DNA from: Gammaproteobacteria bacterium
GTDB lineage: Bacteria; Pseudomonadota; Gammaproteobacteria; GCA-001735895
Direction: 5' to 3'
Length of the DNA stretch: 64,000 nucleotides
Assembly: GCA_050298595.1 (NCBI GenBank)
Contig: JBNKUM010000022.1
Coordinates: forward strand, 1-64,000
The notes under the pieces are model-generated. The model was not told the origin of the DNA, did no database searches, and saw nothing but the letters and a program-made list of their open reading frames with translations. Of this stretch, positions 57,924-63,881 are shown piece by piece (positions within the stretch are counted from its first letter, which is position 1; each line of letters begins with the position of its first letter). The position numbers and the translations under genes are program-made.

Positions 57924-60634
57924 GTATTGAGTTTAGTTTGAATGGTGAAACAATCACCGCCAATACCGATGAAACCATTTTAAAAGCAGCTCAGCGTCAT
58001 GGCGTTGAAATCCCTCACTTATGTTACAAAGACGGACTGGGTGAATCGGGAAACTGTCGTGCCTGTATGGTAGAGATAGAAGGAGAGCGTGTATTATCGC
58101 CATCCTGTTGCCGTAGACCGACAGCGGATATGAAGGTGCATAGCAGTAACGAACGTGCGGTAAAATCTCAGAAACTGGTGCTGGAGCTACTGCAATCTGA
58201 TATGGCACAGGAAGCCTATACCAGGCATAACGAATTAGACTACTGGGCGGATAAATTAGAGCTTGATGCACCACGCTTCGAGCCACGCACAGATAAAGTC
58301 GCCAGAGATGAATCACATCCGGCGATGACGATAAACCTGGATGCCTGTATCCATTGTACCCGTTGTTTACGCGCCTGCCGTGATATTCAGGTAAACGATA
58401 TTATCGGACTGTCACAGCGCGGATCACAAACTAAAATTGTTTTTGACCTTGATGACGCAATGGGAAAAAGTGCCTGTGTCGGTTGTGGTGAATGTGCTCA
58501 GGCCTGTCCGACTGGAGCCATCATGCCTGCGGGTGGTGTCGGTCTTATTGAACCAGATAAAACTGTTGACTCTGTCTGTCCTTATTGCGGGGTAGGGTGC
58601 CTGCTTACCTATTATGTTAAAGACAATAAAATCCTGTATGCAAAGGGACGCAATGGTCCGGCGAATAAAGGCCGACTTTGTGTCAAAGGTCGTTTTGGTT
58701 TTGATTATATCCATCATCCAGAGCGCCTGACTAAACCTCTGATTCGACGCAGTGACGCTCCAAAAACAGCTGAGCTCAATTATCAACCAGAGAATCCTTT
58801 GGCGCTATTTCGTGAAGCCAGCTGGGAGGAAGCACTTGATTTTGCTGCGCAGGGTTTACGTGACATCATTGATAATGAAGGCAAATATGCACTGGCAGGT
58901 CTGGGCTCTGCCAAAGGCAGCTGTGAAGAGGCTTATTTATTTCAGAAATTAATCCGTACCGGATTTGGCACCAATAATGTTGACCACTGTACACGCCTGT
59001 GTCATGCATCATCGGTAACTGCGTTACTGGAAGGTCTTGGTTCCGGCGCAGTGTCGAACCCAATGGCCGATGTGAGTCATTCAGATGTCATTATCGTTAT
59101 AGGTTCTAATCCGACAGTCAATCATCCAGTTGGAGCCACATGGATGAAAAATGCGATTAATAACGGAACCCAGCTGATTTTGATGGACCCTAGAGGTTCA
59201 GATATGAAACGGCATGCCTCTCATTTTGTTCAGTTCAAGCCAGCTTCAGATGTCGCCTTACTGAATGCCATGATGAATGTCATTGTGACTGAGGATCTGG
59301 TAGATCAGGATTTTCTGGATTCGCATACTGAGCAATACGAAAAACTCAGAGTACATTTACAGACTTATACACCCGAAGCTATGCAAGATATCTGTGGAGT
59401 TTCTGCACAGCAGATACGAGAAGTAGCACGTCTATATGCAACCGCTGATAACGCTATGATCCTGTGGGGTATGGGTGTTTCGCAGCATGTTCATGGGACG
59501 GACAATGCACGCTGCCTGATTTCACTGTGTATGATTACCGGACAGATTGGCCGTCCAGGAACAGGATTGCATCCCTTACGAGGTCAGAATAATGTACAGG
59601 GTGCTTCTGACGTAGGCCTGATACCTATGGTTTTTCCAAATTATCAATCAGTAGCTGATCCTTCGGTACAACAACGATTTACTCAACTATGGCAGGTCGA
59701 TGAGCTGGATGATAAACCTGGCCTGACAACAGTAGAGATGATGAATCATGCCTACGATGGCTTAATCAAAGGTATGTACATTGAAGGTGAAAACCCCGCC
59801 ATGTCAGACCCTGATGTTCTGCATGCAAGAACCGCGCTGTCAAGACTGGAGCATCTGGTGGTACAGGATATCTTCATGACAGAAACTGCCTATTATGCCG
59901 ATGTCATTTTGCCAGCTGCTGCCAACCCAGAAAAGACTGGTAGTTATATTAATTCGGATCGTACCGTGCAAATGGGACGTCAGGCGGTAACACCTCCAGG
60001 TAGTGCTCAACCGGACTGGTGGTCGATTCAGGAGATTGCGCGCCGATTAGGTCTGGACTGGAACTACTCTGGCCCTGAGGAAATTTTCAATGAAATGCGC
60101 CAGTCTATGGATTCCATTGCCGGAATAACCTGGTCACGTTTAGAGCAGGAAAGTGTAACCTATCCCTGCCATGAGGAAGGTGATCCAGGTGAACCGATTA
60201 TCTTCAAGGATGGTTTCCCAACCACTACAGGACGGGCAAAACTTGTGCCTGCCGATATCGTACCACCTGATGAGCAGCCGGATAAAGAATATCCATTTAT
60301 TCTAATTACCGGAAGACAACTGGAACATTGGCATACAGGCAGCATGACTCGACGAACAGCGGTACTTGATGAACTAGAACCCGAGCCATGGGTGTCTGTC
60401 AATGTACGTGATGCATTGTCTCTGGGTCTTGACGAGAATTCTTCATTAACACTGCAATCACGTCGAGGGGCACTTAAGGCCAATGTAAGGTTGAGTGACA
60501 ACCTTCCCGCTGGCACGGTGTTTATGCCGTTTTGTTATTTTGAAGCGGCCGCTAACGTACTGACCAATGCAGCGCTAGATCCTCAGGCAAAAATCGCGGA
60601 GGTCAAGTATTGCGCGGTTCGACTGATATCCTGA
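57920..60634 (+). CDS. fdhF: Formate dehydrogenase alpha subunit (Mo/W-bis-PGD, Cys-type)
   Basis: Fe-S motifs, CPYCGVGC, NNVDHCTRLCHAS, LRGQNNVQG; ATGA overlap with the beta subunit. Confidence 0.93.
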   Translation: MSIEFSLNGETITANTDETILKAAQRHGVEIPHLCYKDGLGESGNCRACMVEIEGERVLSPSCCRRPTADMKVHSSNERAVKSQKLVLELLQSDMAQEAYTRHNELDYWADKLELDAPRFEPRTDKVARDESHPAMTINLDACIHCTRCLRACRDIQVNDIIGLSQRGSQTKIVFDLDDAMGKSACVGCGECAQACPTGAIMPAGGVGLIEPDKTVDSVCPYCGVGCLLTYYVKDNKILYAKGRNGPANKGRLCVKGRFGFDYIHHPERLTKPLIRRSDAPKTAELNYQPENPLALFREASWEEALDFAAQGLRDIIDNEGKYALAGLGSAKGSCEEAYLFQKLIRTGFGTNNVDHCTRLCHASSVTALLEGLGSGAVSNPMADVSHSDVIIVIGSNPTVNHPVGATWMKNAINNGTQLILMDPRGSDMKRHASHFVQFKPASDVALLNAMMNVIVTEDLVDQDFLDSHTEQYEKLRVHLQTYTPEAMQDICGVSAQQIREVARLYATADNAMILWGMGVSQHVHGTDNARCLISLCMITGQIGRPGTGLHPLRGQNNVQGASDVGLIPMVFPNYQSVADPSVQQRFTQLWQVDELDDKPGLTTVEMMNHAYDGLIKGMYIEGENPAMSDPDVLHARTALSRLEHLVVQDIFMTETAYYADVILPAAANPEKTGSYINSDRTVQMGRQAVTPPGSAQPDWWSIQEIARRLGLDWNYSGPEEIFNEMRQSMDSIAGITWSRLEQESVTYPCHEEGDPGEPIIFKDGFPTTTGRAKLVPADIVPPDEQPDKEYPFILITGRQLEHWHTGSMTRRTAVLDELEPEPWVSVNVRDALSLGLDENSSLTLQSRRGALKANVRLSDNLPAGTVFMPFCYFEAAANVLTNAALDPQAKIAEVKYCAVRLIS

Positions 60635-61265
60635 AGCTCTAGAGAAAGTCAAATGGATGCAGGATAGCTGCTGCATTTAATCATTATGAGGGTGGTTATT
60701 ATGATCAGTTGTAATCCTCTAGCTTTAACTTATGCAACGCTCTGCCTGACACTTATGTCAGGTAGCTAAACCTATGCTGTCTCAAATGATAATTCAACTG
60801 TAAAGGTGGCATAGCCAAATATAGCTGAGGCACTACATTCTGCGTGATGGGGCGGGATAGGTCTTTTCAACGTTTATCAACCTGGTTTTATTTATACTAC
60901 CGTTGGAATTAGTTGCACAAAATCAGTCCAATTATTTGGTAAAAACTAGCCAAAAAGCCTGCAGTCACGGCTTACATGAGCAACCAAATGAAGGACCTTT
61001 TGCAGTATTTTTATTTTGCGACGATGCTGGAGGATCAAACATTGGAGTAATATTAACAGAAAAAGGTGCTGGTCCTGGAAAAATAATGGTTAGAAAGTAG
61101 AATTTGAAGTTGGACAGGGCCAGAAAGGGCCATGTGCAAATAAAGTTAAATCTCTCTAGTTCCGCCATATAGCTAAGAATTATAAAGGCGTGAAAAATTC
61201 GTGGGGTTATCCGGGATCTTGGCGGATATCAATATAAATAGGAGATTATTGGTTGATCTTTCGGC

Positions 61266-61294
61266 TTGTAATATGAAAATATGGCCTTTATACT
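61266..61294 (+). promoter_or_regulatory. Putative sigma70 promoter of the MNIO locus
   Basis: TTGTAA-N17-TATACT, then AAGGAG (61315-61320) before the ATG at 61329. Confidence 0.55.
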
Positions 61295-61328
61295 TCCTAT
61301 TCTTTTAACTGCTTAAGGAGTAGGTTTT

Positions 61329-61571
61329 ATGGAAATACCTGCAGCAATGGCATTAGAAAAAGATGTACTTCGTTCCAACATCGTTCGCGTCACTATCCCC
61401 GCTACGGTTGCCTACAATCTCGACAGGATGCGTAAGGTTACCGATTCTATCCTCGACAGACTGGGTTGCTCTAACTGCCATTCCGGTTTCGATCTCCGTT
61501 TCGATATTGAGAGACAGTTTGTCGTCGATGAGAAGCTTAACGTACGAGTAGTAGGCGAACAGATTCGGTAG
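61329..61571 (+). CDS. 80-aa putative MNIO substrate / RiPP precursor with internal CxxCH motif
   Basis: Strong RBS; LDRLGCSNCHSGFD contains its only cysteines (C47, C50); the stop overlaps the MNIO start (TAGTG). Confidence 0.75.
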   Translation: MEIPAAMALEKDVLRSNIVRVTIPATVAYNLDRMRKVTDSILDRLGCSNCHSGFDLRFDIERQFVVDEKLNVRVVGEQIR

Positions 61572-63031
61572 TGAAGACGCCAGGACTTGGTGTAGGCCTT
61601 GTCTATATCCCGGGACTCGAACCATTGTTCGAGTCCCAGGATGGTTCTGTTCAGGTCCTGGAGCTAGAGCCTCAGGCGTTGTGGCGCCAGTATCCCAATA
61701 GGCCCCAGCCCTATACCAACCAAATAGAGCTACTGAACTGCTTCAAGGACTGGCCACAGCATAAGATTGTCCATGGGGTAGGATTTCCTGTGGGTGGATC
61801 ACGCTTGCCGGACCCACGTCATCTACCACCGTTGCGCGAGGCTATTGAGACCATCGGTGCCAAGTGGGCGAGCGAACACCTGGTGTTCAACGAAGCAGAA
61901 GATCACAACGGCTCGGTCTATCAAACCGGTTTCTTTTTACCACCACTATTGACCCCCGCTGGTATTGAGGCCGTGGTGCCTATTATCCGTTCGGTATCTG
62001 CAGATATCCCTGTACCTTTCGCTATCGAAACACCAGCCAACTACCTTCAGCCTCTTCCTGGACAGTTACGGGATGGCGAATTCACTGCCGCTGTAGCCGA
62101 GCAGGCCGACTGTGGAATCCTGCTTGATATTCACAATATCTGGACCAATGAACAAAACGGACGGCAGAGTGTCGAGGAATTTCTCAGTGAGATCCCACTG
62201 GATCGAGTGTGGGAGATCCATCTGGCCGGCGGCTTGAAGTATGGTGATTTCTGGCTCGATGCCCATTCGGGTGATATCCCCCGTCCGGTTCTCGAATGGA
62301 CCCGGCGACTTATACCGCAACTGCCAAACCTGGGCGCCATCATCTATGAATTGTTGCCTGCCTATTTCCCCTCTTTTGGTCTGGAGGGTGTGCGAAAGGC
62401 ACTTGATGAAATGCATGAAGTCTGGGCCCTACGAAACACTCCGACCCTTGCCACTTCACCTTTACCCGACCCACCACCGAAGACTGAACCGCCATTCGAC
62501 ACGACCCTACCATCGGAGTGGGAAAATACCCTGGCCGGTACCATCGTGGCTTACCACGCTAATGAGTCGCCCTTGGCCCGGCAGGTAGCCGTAGATCCGG
62601 CGGTAGAACTCGTGCGGAGTCTCAACAAGAAATTCCGCATGAGCGCAGTTGTCACTAACCTGAGGCTTTCTGTTCGCCAACTGATCCTCTCACTGTCAGA
62701 AGCGGAGTTTGATCAACTCATCCAGGATTACTGCACAACCGTGCGTCCGCAACGTTTCGGTGCCGCTGAAGCTAAAAACTTCGCCGACTTTATCGGTAGG
62801 CGGAAAATGGAGATCCCATATCTGGCCGAAGTGCTCAACTACGAAGTTGCAGCTATCGACGTGATCGCCGACAGATGTTCACGGATTGTGCCTTTTTCAG
62901 TAGATCCTGAGACTTTACTGGAGGCTCTGGCAATGGGTAAGTTGCCGGAAAACATCACAAGCGGTAACTACGAAGCTGAGGTCGTACCGCCGGATGTGGA
63001 TCCGTTGGTTAACAATCCACTCTATCACTGA
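61571..63031 (+). CDS. DUF692 family multinuclear non-heme iron oxidase (MbnB/TglH/ChrH-like) with C-terminal extension
   Basis: GVGL start, HGVGFPVGG, WASEHL, IETPANY, LLDIHNI, EIHLAGG, LDAHSG, IIYE; then a Pro-rich linker and ~180 extra residues. Confidence 0.9.
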   Translation: MKTPGLGVGLVYIPGLEPLFESQDGSVQVLELEPQALWRQYPNRPQPYTNQIELLNCFKDWPQHKIVHGVGFPVGGSRLPDPRHLPPLREAIETIGAKWASEHLVFNEAEDHNGSVYQTGFFLPPLLTPAGIEAVVPIIRSVSADIPVPFAIETPANYLQPLPGQLRDGEFTAAVAEQADCGILLDIHNIWTNEQNGRQSVEEFLSEIPLDRVWEIHLAGGLKYGDFWLDAHSGDIPRPVLEWTRRLIPQLPNLGAIIYELLPAYFPSFGLEGVRKALDEMHEVWALRNTPTLATSPLPDPPPKTEPPFDTTLPSEWENTLAGTIVAYHANESPLARQVAVDPAVELVRSLNKKFRMSAVVTNLRLSVRQLILSLSEAEFDQLIQDYCTTVRPQRFGAAEAKNFADFIGRRKMEIPYLAEVLNYEVAAIDVIADRCSRIVPFSVDPETLLEALAMGKLPENITSGNYEAEVVPPDVDPLVNNPLYH

Positions 63032-63362
63032 CAGGTTTTGTAAGTATGTGGTGATAAATCTCAACATGAAATACGGCTAACAATAGTTCTTTCACCCTCT
63101 GGGAAAAGGACAGGTAGCATACATGAAACATCAACCCGGCTTTCCCATTTGAGCGAATGGTATTGCTATATAATCATAAGTACCGACTATTGATCTTTAT
63201 CTTGGATTAGACAAATGATTTCGTCTTCACTAAGAGGCATTTCACTGATAGGCTTTTTAACCTATCTTCACGGAAGTTTGTCTTTCAATTTTCTGATTAA
63301 TAGCCAGTGTAATGCTCATAACTAAAAATGCCCCAAGACCTGCTAATGCCATGCCGTCCAAT

Positions 63363-63575
63363 TTCCACATGCTATTCCTGGATGGCGTATACACAAAAAA
63401 CTAACAGGGGAAGACAAGGTTCCAACGTTCCTTAGCCCAAAATCAACAAGAACTGGGCTAACTGGTTCACACGATCAGTCACCGTGTAGCCCGCTATCTT
63501 GTACGTCAGGGTCTTCTCGAACGTGATGAAGAAAACAGCTACCTGCAACTGGATGGTATCCCATGCAACAACTGA
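63363..63575 (+). pseudogene. IS91/ISCR-family transposase remnant
   Basis: FHMLFLDGVYTKN*QGKTRF..LVHTISHRVARYLVRQGLLERDEENSYL, with stops. Confidence 0.8.
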
Positions 63576-63881
63576 CGGGGGCGGTTTGTTACTGCATACT
63601 GTTGGTCAATTTAGCAGGGTGGTAGAAGTGACATTTTAGTTTTGAATTGATATTCTTTGAATCAGTTCGCTGCTTATTGAGAGCAATAATCCTAAGATAA
63701 ACTGATTAACAGGAAGTTTATAAATCGATAGGGTCAATTGATAATTTCTTTAACTCGTTTAGCCTGCTCATTTTCAGAATGCCGGTCAGTCTTGACTCGA
63801 TTTGGTGGCCAGCCCGGTCAGTTGGGGCTGGTGCCTACAGTTCGATAGAGCTTCTTCCTTTATTCTTAATTATGGCTACGG

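Follow-up and report, generated by a model that had tools for sequence, protein, structure and literature searches.

The stretch of DNA analysed here, referred to below as the window, comprises the first 64,000 nucleotides (nt) of contig JBNKUM010000022.1 from the Gammaproteobacteria bacterium assembly GCA_050298595.1. Close to its 3′ end it carries two adjoining genes, one for a protein of 80 amino acids (aa) and one for an enzyme of the DUF692 group, the multinuclear non-haem iron oxidases (MNIOs). The oxidative reactions that MNIO enzymes perform on peptides are among the most unusual known, and the sequence space of these enzymes is mostly untested. Homology places the gene pair in adjamnio-7 of MNIO cluster 7, a class that has been named and is uncharacterised. 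The pair is a self-contained two-gene module, distributed across many phyla.

All features of the locus are oriented in the forward direction. The small gene (61,329–61,571), identified by an open reading frame (ORF) call and by family homology, starts with ATG and ends in a TAG stop whose last base is also the first base of the GTG with which the 486-aa MNIO/DUF692 gene (61,571–63,031) begins, exactly the stop/start arrangement originally described. The small gene is present in a single copy in its own genome. A Shine–Dalgarno sequence, AAGGAG (61,315–61,320), is located 8 nt ahead of the ATG, and GGAG-type sites precede the equivalent ATG at homologous loci too. The ribosome-binding site proposed for this gene is thus present, but the promoter proposed with it fares no better than shuffled sequence. 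The promoter-like hexamer pair TTGTAA-17-TATACT (61,266–61,294) agrees with the consensus at 9 of 12 positions and is a candidate only, the region containing three such sites against 3.9 expected from shuffles. An Rfam search of positions 60,600–63,400 with E values up to 1 gave zero matches. In a search for operators between 61,100 and 61,340, the sole inverted repeat was a short palindrome overlapping the ribosome-binding site.

The 80-aa protein contains only two cysteines, C47 and C50, both within LGCSNCHSGFD, as the original prediction had it. No Pfam or NCBIfam family matches this protein, and the 13 relatives obtained in a first search all feature LGCxxC[H/C]SG. Column counts were made in 109 domains that had been found through the enzyme and are free of motif-based selection. 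In the loop G46-C47-S-N-C50-H51-S52-G53-F-D55 (61,464–61,493), position 46 is G in 101 of these domains, position 50 is C in 103, position 52 is S in 100 and T in seven, position 53 is G in 102 and position 55 is D in 96. Position 47 is occupied by C in 77 domains and by H in 19, position 51 by F (27), H (27), C (23) or A (9), and position 56 by I (50) or C (32). The family motif hence reads G-[C/H]-x-x-C-x-[S/T]-G-x-D. The anticipated conservation of LGCxxCxSG holds for C50, S52 and G53, which are near-invariant, but not for position 47, where C or H is found, and His51 is shared by 27 of the 109 domains only; judging by the alignment, His51 (CHSG) is a subfamily trait.

The loop is also rich in potential metal ligands. 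Exactly three Cys or His residues occur among positions 47, 50, 51, 54 and 56 in 85 of the 103 domains that bear C50. In these 103 domains a third Cys or His is located at position 51 in 49 cases and at 54 or 56 in 41, never at both, and at neither in 13. The Cys/His site suggested for the protein is, with these counts, a reasonable reading.

Outside the loop, about 25–30 residues following the motif (FDIRF...FVVDEKL) are conserved, even in forms of the protein that have no cysteine. The lack of a signal peptide was borne out by the N-termini of 37 family members, in whose first 30 residues the longest strongly hydrophobic run is five, as assessed by inspection and not with a predictor. Double-domain forms in one frame were found at 35 of 72 loci with matches, and two separate small genes at two. 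Among the top 150 of 514 representatives the small domain occurs alone or in tandem only, with protein lengths of 62–284 aa; longer small-domain proteins were only seven, of 166–193 aa. None of 8000 scored candidates showed a fusion of the small domain to an MNIO or any other large domain, which is weak evidence.

The catalytic part of the enzyme, residues 1 to about 295 (61,571–62,455), is outlined by a Pfam match, by PDB profile matches and by its ligand columns. PF05114 (MbnB_TglH_ChrH) matches residues 66–254 with 129.1 bits at a cut-off of 25. The PDB profile matches are limited to the catalytic part and include TglH (8hci, E = 2e-28, positions 6–294), 3bww (E = 1e-27, positions 23–220) and MbnB. 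Eleven columns (H68, E102, H103, E153, D186, H188, N189, H217, D230, H232 and E260) are candidate iron ligands, a role that we presume for them from the MbnB and TglH structures. All eleven are invariant across 27 long homologues; in a wider set of 81 enzymes they equal those of the window in 65, with E102D in 13 and one other change in three. The claim of a DUF692 enzyme with intact iron-ligand motifs is thereby upheld, and by family assignment the enzyme is a multinuclear non-haem iron oxidase with predicted activity. It reaches none of the NCBIfam equivalogs compared, scoring 106 bits for BufB (cut-off 310), 87 for HvfB (360), 76 for ApyH (400), 39.7 for ChrH (600) and 11.4 for MbnB (325). 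These values set the enzyme apart from characterised MNIO types, among them those of methanobactin and ChrA, whose precursors the small protein had been noted not to resemble.

The enzyme had been described as extended. The additional residues, about 190 aa in number (296–486; 62,456–63,031), are indeed there, but they read as a fused DUF2063-like domain rather than as an extension. They are found in all 28 complete genome-derived enzymes (454–500 aa) and throughout the 81-enzyme set (431–505 aa). A local hhalign comparison of 81 C-terminal regions with 16 DUF2063 partner proteins gave a probability of 82.8% and E = 9.4e-6 over 89 columns. The profile alignment pairs window residues ~337–429 (62,579–62,857) with DUF2063 residues 34–124. 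When aligned to one lone DUF2063 partner sequence, the match was weak (probability 9%). In Pfam, the C-terminal piece of the window enzyme gave sub-threshold chance matches only and the other five pieces none whatsoever. DUF2063-type and related proteins are the partners of MNIOs in precursor modification (PMC12452194), and leader peptides are recognised by the partners MbnC and TglI (PMC10214503). Since its C-terminal profile aligns with that of the DUF2063 partners, the enzyme appears to carry its own partner as a fused domain. In the published scheme, PME type 1 is defined by the DUF2063 Pfam signature and type 2 by structural similarity in HHpred without that signature (PMC12452194). The similarity to DUF2063 without a Pfam signature seen here fits a description as "PME type 2-like, fused".

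The association of the two genes was followed from both sides. The genome scan, with one genome per species, used the peptide pattern CHSG[FHR]D[IL]R[FY]; being pattern-based, it is silent on motif conservation, and an enzyme-side search was therefore added. From the small-protein side, the start of a long MNIO gene lies no more than about 90 nt downstream of the small gene at all 35 loci obtained (35/35). They span Pseudomonadota, Bacteroidota, Balneolota, Ignavibacteriota, Acidobacteriota, Planctomycetota and Actinomycetota. Twenty-eight of their enzymes are complete, five are cut by contig ends and two are apparently broken: in L020 the long MNIO is split over three frames and in L032 it gives two overlapping matches, and the small genes of both loci look intact. 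The enzyme-side metagenome scan covered the best 80 of 548 relatives, 75 of them with at least 260 nt of upstream sequence. A match to the small-protein profile was located directly upstream of the enzyme at 71 of these 75 loci. The four misses comprise three loci with a recognisable Cys-less small ORF and one (L106) without any small ORF. The co-occurrence with DUF692 on which the original prediction depended is thus strong from either direction.

No further gene was found to be common across phyla when the ORFs of 114 loci were clustered, nor was any conserved peptidase, protease, exporter or transporter present at these loci. The recurrent neighbours are lineage-specific only, namely a Bcp peroxiredoxin at 11 loci and a condensation-domain-like protein at six. 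The latter, a protein of about 500 aa with an HxxxDG motif, is encoded directly upstream of the small gene in L016, L017 and L022, all from Thermoanaerobaculia, and in the metagenome contigs L053, L055 and L059; L016 also contains a second small-protein copy. Clustering of the family members at 90% identity gives 820 clusters, and at 50% identity 514 representatives remain; within single taxa the family is patchy. Of 400 genomes of the window's class, two contain the long enzyme, and it was found in neither of two genomes of the same family; the small protein occurs in five of 300 genomes from a Lysobacteraceae-type family and in eight of 251 from a Streptomycetaceae-type one.

The pair does not represent a previously unseen MNIO class; it adds a member to a family that genome mining had already flagged. 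Antoine et al. (2025, PMC12452194) list, under the name adjamnio-7, putative CxxC precursors without signal peptides beside cluster 7 of their MNIO sequence similarity network, represented by WP_078758616 of Novilysobacter spongiicola. WP_078758616.1 was recovered in the present genome scan at locus L041. The small protein of the window is 48% identical to it over 58 aa (BLASTP E = 2e-23), and the family profile matches it with E = 4.8e-24. Its gene is followed by that of a 472-aa DUF692 protein, WP_078758615, to which the window enzyme is 40% identical. Both systems share the lack of a signal peptide, the CxxC motif and a position directly upstream of a DUF692 enzyme of 472–486 aa, and they do not differ in kind. 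What the main text of that paper reports on the family is limited to its name, its CxxC motif, the absence of a signal peptide and a picture from AlphaFold (PMC12452194). In comparison with this text, the fused domain, the full motif, the double forms, the lineage without Cys and the restriction of the module to two genes are additional, although Fig. 5b and Fig. S3 of the paper may already display enzyme length or a motif logo. The term "adjamnio" was found in that single paper, and no experimental study of the adjamnio-7 family turned up in a literature search that went by titles and abstracts.

Among the characterised systems, the bufferins or captophorins (BufA-BufB-BufC; HvfA-C; fontiphorin) are similar in several respects. 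In these, too, the Cys residues on which the MNIO acts belong to a small precursor resembling a protein, a DUF2063-type partner is involved, and the metal-binding product arises without the usual excision of a leader; they also provide the best NCBIfam matches of the window enzyme. However, bufferin precursors feature a Sec signal peptide, DUF2282 or EGKCG-type motifs and a separate partner gene, whereas the window system has no signal peptide, another motif and a fused partner, and its enzyme scores 106 against 310 bits. Neither a DUF2282 or BUF_6/12Cys precursor nor a separate DUF2063 partner gene, which would mark a member of this group, is part of the pair.

The ChrA/ChrHI system of chryseobasin has the same CxxCxxG spacing in its precursor (CPACGMG, compared with CSNCHSG). 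It differs in the C-terminal location of the motif within a peptide, in the DUF1772 membrane partner ChrI and in the presence of a peptidase in the cluster. The ChrH score of 39.7 against 600 bits, the internal and differing motif and the lack of a ChrI-like gene set the pair apart from it. TglA/TglHI, the pearlin system yielding 3-thiaglutamate, includes TglH, the closest solved structure of the catalytic domain (8hci). It also has a substrate without a signal peptide and a DUF2063-like partner of PME type 2 (PMC12452194). In contrast to the window pair, TglI is a separate protein, the target is a C-terminal Cys appended to a scaffold peptide, and a small molecule results. MovX, from a methanobactin-like cluster of Vibrio, is likewise an MNIO without a separate partner and with an extra fused domain, and its winged helix-turn-helix might replace the partner (PMC12452194). 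The type of fused domain is another one, MovX cleaves an N–Cα bond at Asn, and its cluster has several genes. A methanobactin (MbnABC) system is not indicated either, the MbnB score being 11.4 against 325 bits and no further gene of the module being present.

The surroundings of the pair are compositionally distinct from it. The GC-content of the two genes is 0.526, compared with 0.440 for the whole window (standard deviation 0.035 over 1.7-kb windows) and 0.385 and 0.415 for the flanks, in keeping with the difference from the flanks reported earlier; five 1.7-kb windows have a GC-content equal to or above that of the gene pair. A formate-dehydrogenase-like operon is located upstream. Downstream, about 1.4 kb of non-coding remains contain a decayed fragment of an IS91-family transposase gene (63,468–63,545, forward strand; 78 nt). 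It is 75.6% identical to IS91/ISVsa3 transposase genes (E = 6e-5), which are plasmid-borne, and its frames are interrupted by stops. Of the scars of IS91 and of a recombinase that had been proposed, the former is confirmed by this match and the latter is not; Pfam gave no match on the short scar fragments. The scar region 63,474–63,722 is 75% identical to a non-coding stretch of the same genome situated between intact genes (C100:147615-147876), so that this element is present in the genome in two or more decayed copies. Upstream of the pair, the intergenic stretch 61,082–61,159 (78 nt) recurs in the genome on contigs C104 (91% identity) and C46 (80%); it could represent a short repeat or one end of a mobile element.

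The next genes beyond the non-coding remains are fatty-acid oxidation genes and a gene for a major facilitator superfamily (MFS) transporter (PF07690). The latter is located ~1.4 kb downstream, at 64,436–65,647 of the contig, just outside the window and past the insertion sequence (IS) scar. The original statement that no peptidase or transporter lies nearby is accordingly correct in that none is conserved at other loci, but not for this MFS gene.

In the enzyme tree, the window sequence groups with Candidatus Thiodiazotropha (support 100/100), and Lysobacteraceae fall into two separate clades. Taken with the jump in GC-content and the IS scar, the tree is consistent with horizontal acquisition, and the window locus can be regarded as an unremarkable copy, gained horizontally, of a module that is rare and patchy in its distribution.

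The window's own genome also contains two classical bufferin-type clusters, L001 (G000:C115:1794-5579) and L002 (G000:C78:44516-48298). They encode Cys-rich precursors with signal peptides (82 aa in one, two of 88 aa in the other), MNIOs of 281 or 289 aa and DUF2063 partners of 266 or 258 aa. Together with the window pair, this amounts to three MNIO systems in one genome. Apart from the window's own genome, a single genome of the class sample contains the long enzyme. There, at L046 (G322:C1:2756438-2760868), a DUF2063 gene is directly followed by two tandem small genes with CTACCSGWD loops and a 494-aa MNIO, one case in which the two kinds of system are physically linked. The DUF2063 ORF is open at the start of the locus and could be part of a classical bufferin cluster, in which case it would provide one isolated hint at a related, metal-linked role.

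With moderate confidence, we take the small protein to be the dedicated cytoplasmic substrate of the enzyme, which would oxidise Cys50 to build a metal or redox site. The fused partner domain would bind the conserved N-terminal strand–helix part of the small protein (VRVTIPAxVAxxL...) and present the loop G46-C47-x-x-C50-H51-S52-G53-x-D55 to the iron site, where the near-invariant Cys50 would undergo O2-dependent oxidation. The most likely reaction would be a four-electron heterocyclisation with a loss of 4 Da, giving a 5-thiooxazole or an oxazolone-thioamide. This chemistry is preferred because BufB and HvfB, the best-scoring models of the enzyme, catalyse such reactions, which yield copper ligands in the bufferins (PMC12452194). 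The modified Cys50 might then form, with C47 and H51, a three-ligand site for a metal (Cu-type) or for redox function. The product would stay in the cell as the small protein, neither cut nor exported. A protein is favoured over an excised peptide by the absence of a signal-like N-terminus and of a conserved protease or exporter, by the conserved sequence after the motif and by the tandem forms. What is inferred here is the binding step, which residue is modified and by what chemistry, the metal, and the role of the small protein in the cell. The proposal that the small protein is the substrate, made from the window sequence, is reasonable and now much better supported through the genetic coupling and the motif, although the Cys-less lineage speaks against its general form.

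More tentatively, and with rather less confidence than we attach to the substrate role, the module may install a protein-derived cofactor and not a natural product. The MNIO, with its partner built in, would turn one Cys of the small, folded protein into a thiooxazole or thioamide-type ligand, which would join two neighbouring Cys/His in an intracellular Cu(I) or redox site, making the system a cytoplasmic counterpart of the periplasmic bufferins. As part of this same tentative reading, the Cys-less lineage would mark a second, Cys-independent activity of the pair.

Several observations weigh against a Cys-modifying module with a fused partner. The most serious is that nine metagenome loci of one lineage (L121, L090, L087, L108, L081 and L086, and the sub-threshold L067, L082 and L083) encode small proteins whose domain lacks Cys altogether, in the loop and outside it. 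The N- and C-terminal parts of the small protein are retained in these forms, and a Bcp peroxiredoxin gene is located ~1 kb upstream in eight of the nine loci. The enzyme ligand columns are intact in L067, L082, L083 and L106, the loci read individually. Five informative pairs indicate purifying selection, with ratios of non-synonymous to synonymous substitution rates (dN/dS) of 0.09–0.22 for the enzyme and 0.21–0.40 for the small ORF; a sixth pair was too close for signal, and L057/L125, both Cys-bearing, were left out. Because this lineage keeps both genes under purifying selection, Cys cannot be the universal target. The original assignment of the small protein's Cys as the target is thus backed by C50 in 103 of 109 domains and contradicted by a nine-locus lineage. 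At L106, the enzyme occurs without any small ORF. The apparent exchange of the third ligand between position 51 and positions 54 or 56 has a raw Fisher p of 1.3e-17, a value that ignores kinship, and in a kin-controlled test with only five independent pairs the median p was 0.5. As for the fused domain, the match to DUF2063 covers ~90 residues only, no part resembling a RiPP recognition element (RRE) was detected in it, and Pfam assigns it no family. Finally, the chemistry is not transferable by homology, the enzyme lying far under every equivalog cut-off. These points leave room for a Cys-independent role of the small protein, either as a subunit or activator of the enzyme or through a second target residue.

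The same lineage is the best argument for a different, fairly unlikely reading, in which the small protein is an obligate subunit, a metallochaperone or a redox partner and the substrate is encoded elsewhere or is no peptide at all. Both genes remain under purifying selection there, the three enzymes read individually have intact ligands, and the enzyme of L106 does without a small ORF; moreover, a Cys/His triad could hold a metal with no modification. However, a protein without Cys would be no carrier of metal or electrons, so that the lineage weighs against this explanation too. No third gene that might supply a substrate is conserved alongside the pair across phyla, the fused domain of the enzyme is, by its profile similarity, of the type that partners MNIOs on peptide substrates, and a small upstream Cys-bearing ORF is the substrate in the published MNIO clusters (PMC12452194).

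If the small protein is the substrate, the reaction could still be a ChrH-like or other cross-link, in which residue 47 attacks the β-carbon of Cys50 to close a macrocycle within the loop. In the CPACGMG motif of ChrA, ChrH bonds the first Cys, through its thiol, to the β-carbon of the second, which is the residue oxidised (PMC10214503); CSNCHSG shares the CxxCxxG spacing. In adjamnio-7 the second Cys is likewise near-invariant, and position 47 is mostly C or H, both nucleophiles. Some second domains, however, have P or A at position 47, the ChrH score of 39.7 against a cut-off of 600 is under those for BufB and HvfB, no DUF1772 membrane partner of the ChrI type is encoded, and the motif is internal to a folded-looking protein rather than C-terminal. 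We consider such a cross-link a real alternative but a rather unlikely one, and heterocyclisation of Cys50 is retained as the preferred reaction.

Most characterised MNIO products are peptides, and unlinked proteases are known for some RiPPs, peptides that are made by the ribosome and modified after translation. A conventional RiPP, in which the N-terminal part serves as a leader and the core is excised and exported by unlinked housekeeping proteases and transporters, would agree with this precedent, and the MFS gene 1.4 kb downstream in the window's own genome could be cited in its favour. That gene, however, lies past the IS scar and was not found at other loci, and no protease or transporter is conserved at 115 loci. 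The ~25–30 conserved residues after the motif, retained in the Cys-less forms, and the tandem double-domain proteins suit a folded unit better than a leader–core peptide, which makes an excised product improbable. A small c-type cytochrome with CxxCH as its haem c attachment site, suggested through CxxCH by weak sub-threshold matches (Pfam Cytochrom_C552, E = 0.069; PDB 9l08, E = 6e-4), was rejected as practically negligible, since all matches are under the family cut-offs, the protein lacks a signal peptide that would export it to where haem c is attached, position 51 is variable (His in 27 of 109 domains only), position 47 is often His, and the strict coupling to an MNIO would not be accounted for.

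For the study of MNIO chemistry, the pair offers a convenient entry point, having only two genes, a fused partner and a soluble substrate without a signal peptide. Homologues are present in culturable strains, namely Terrimonas rubra KCTC 23299, Fodinibius halophilus 2W32, Kitasatospora xanthocidica JCM 4862, Streptomyces sp. CB01881, Luteimonas salinisoli SJ-92 and Novilysobacter spongiicola DSM 21749. With only two genes and a fused partner, the adjamnio-7 pair is well suited to a direct test, and the Cys-less lineage is a natural experiment on other activities of the enzyme. Should the product prove to be a modified protein in the cytoplasm, the chemistry of MNIOs would reach from exported peptides to intracellular protein cofactors.

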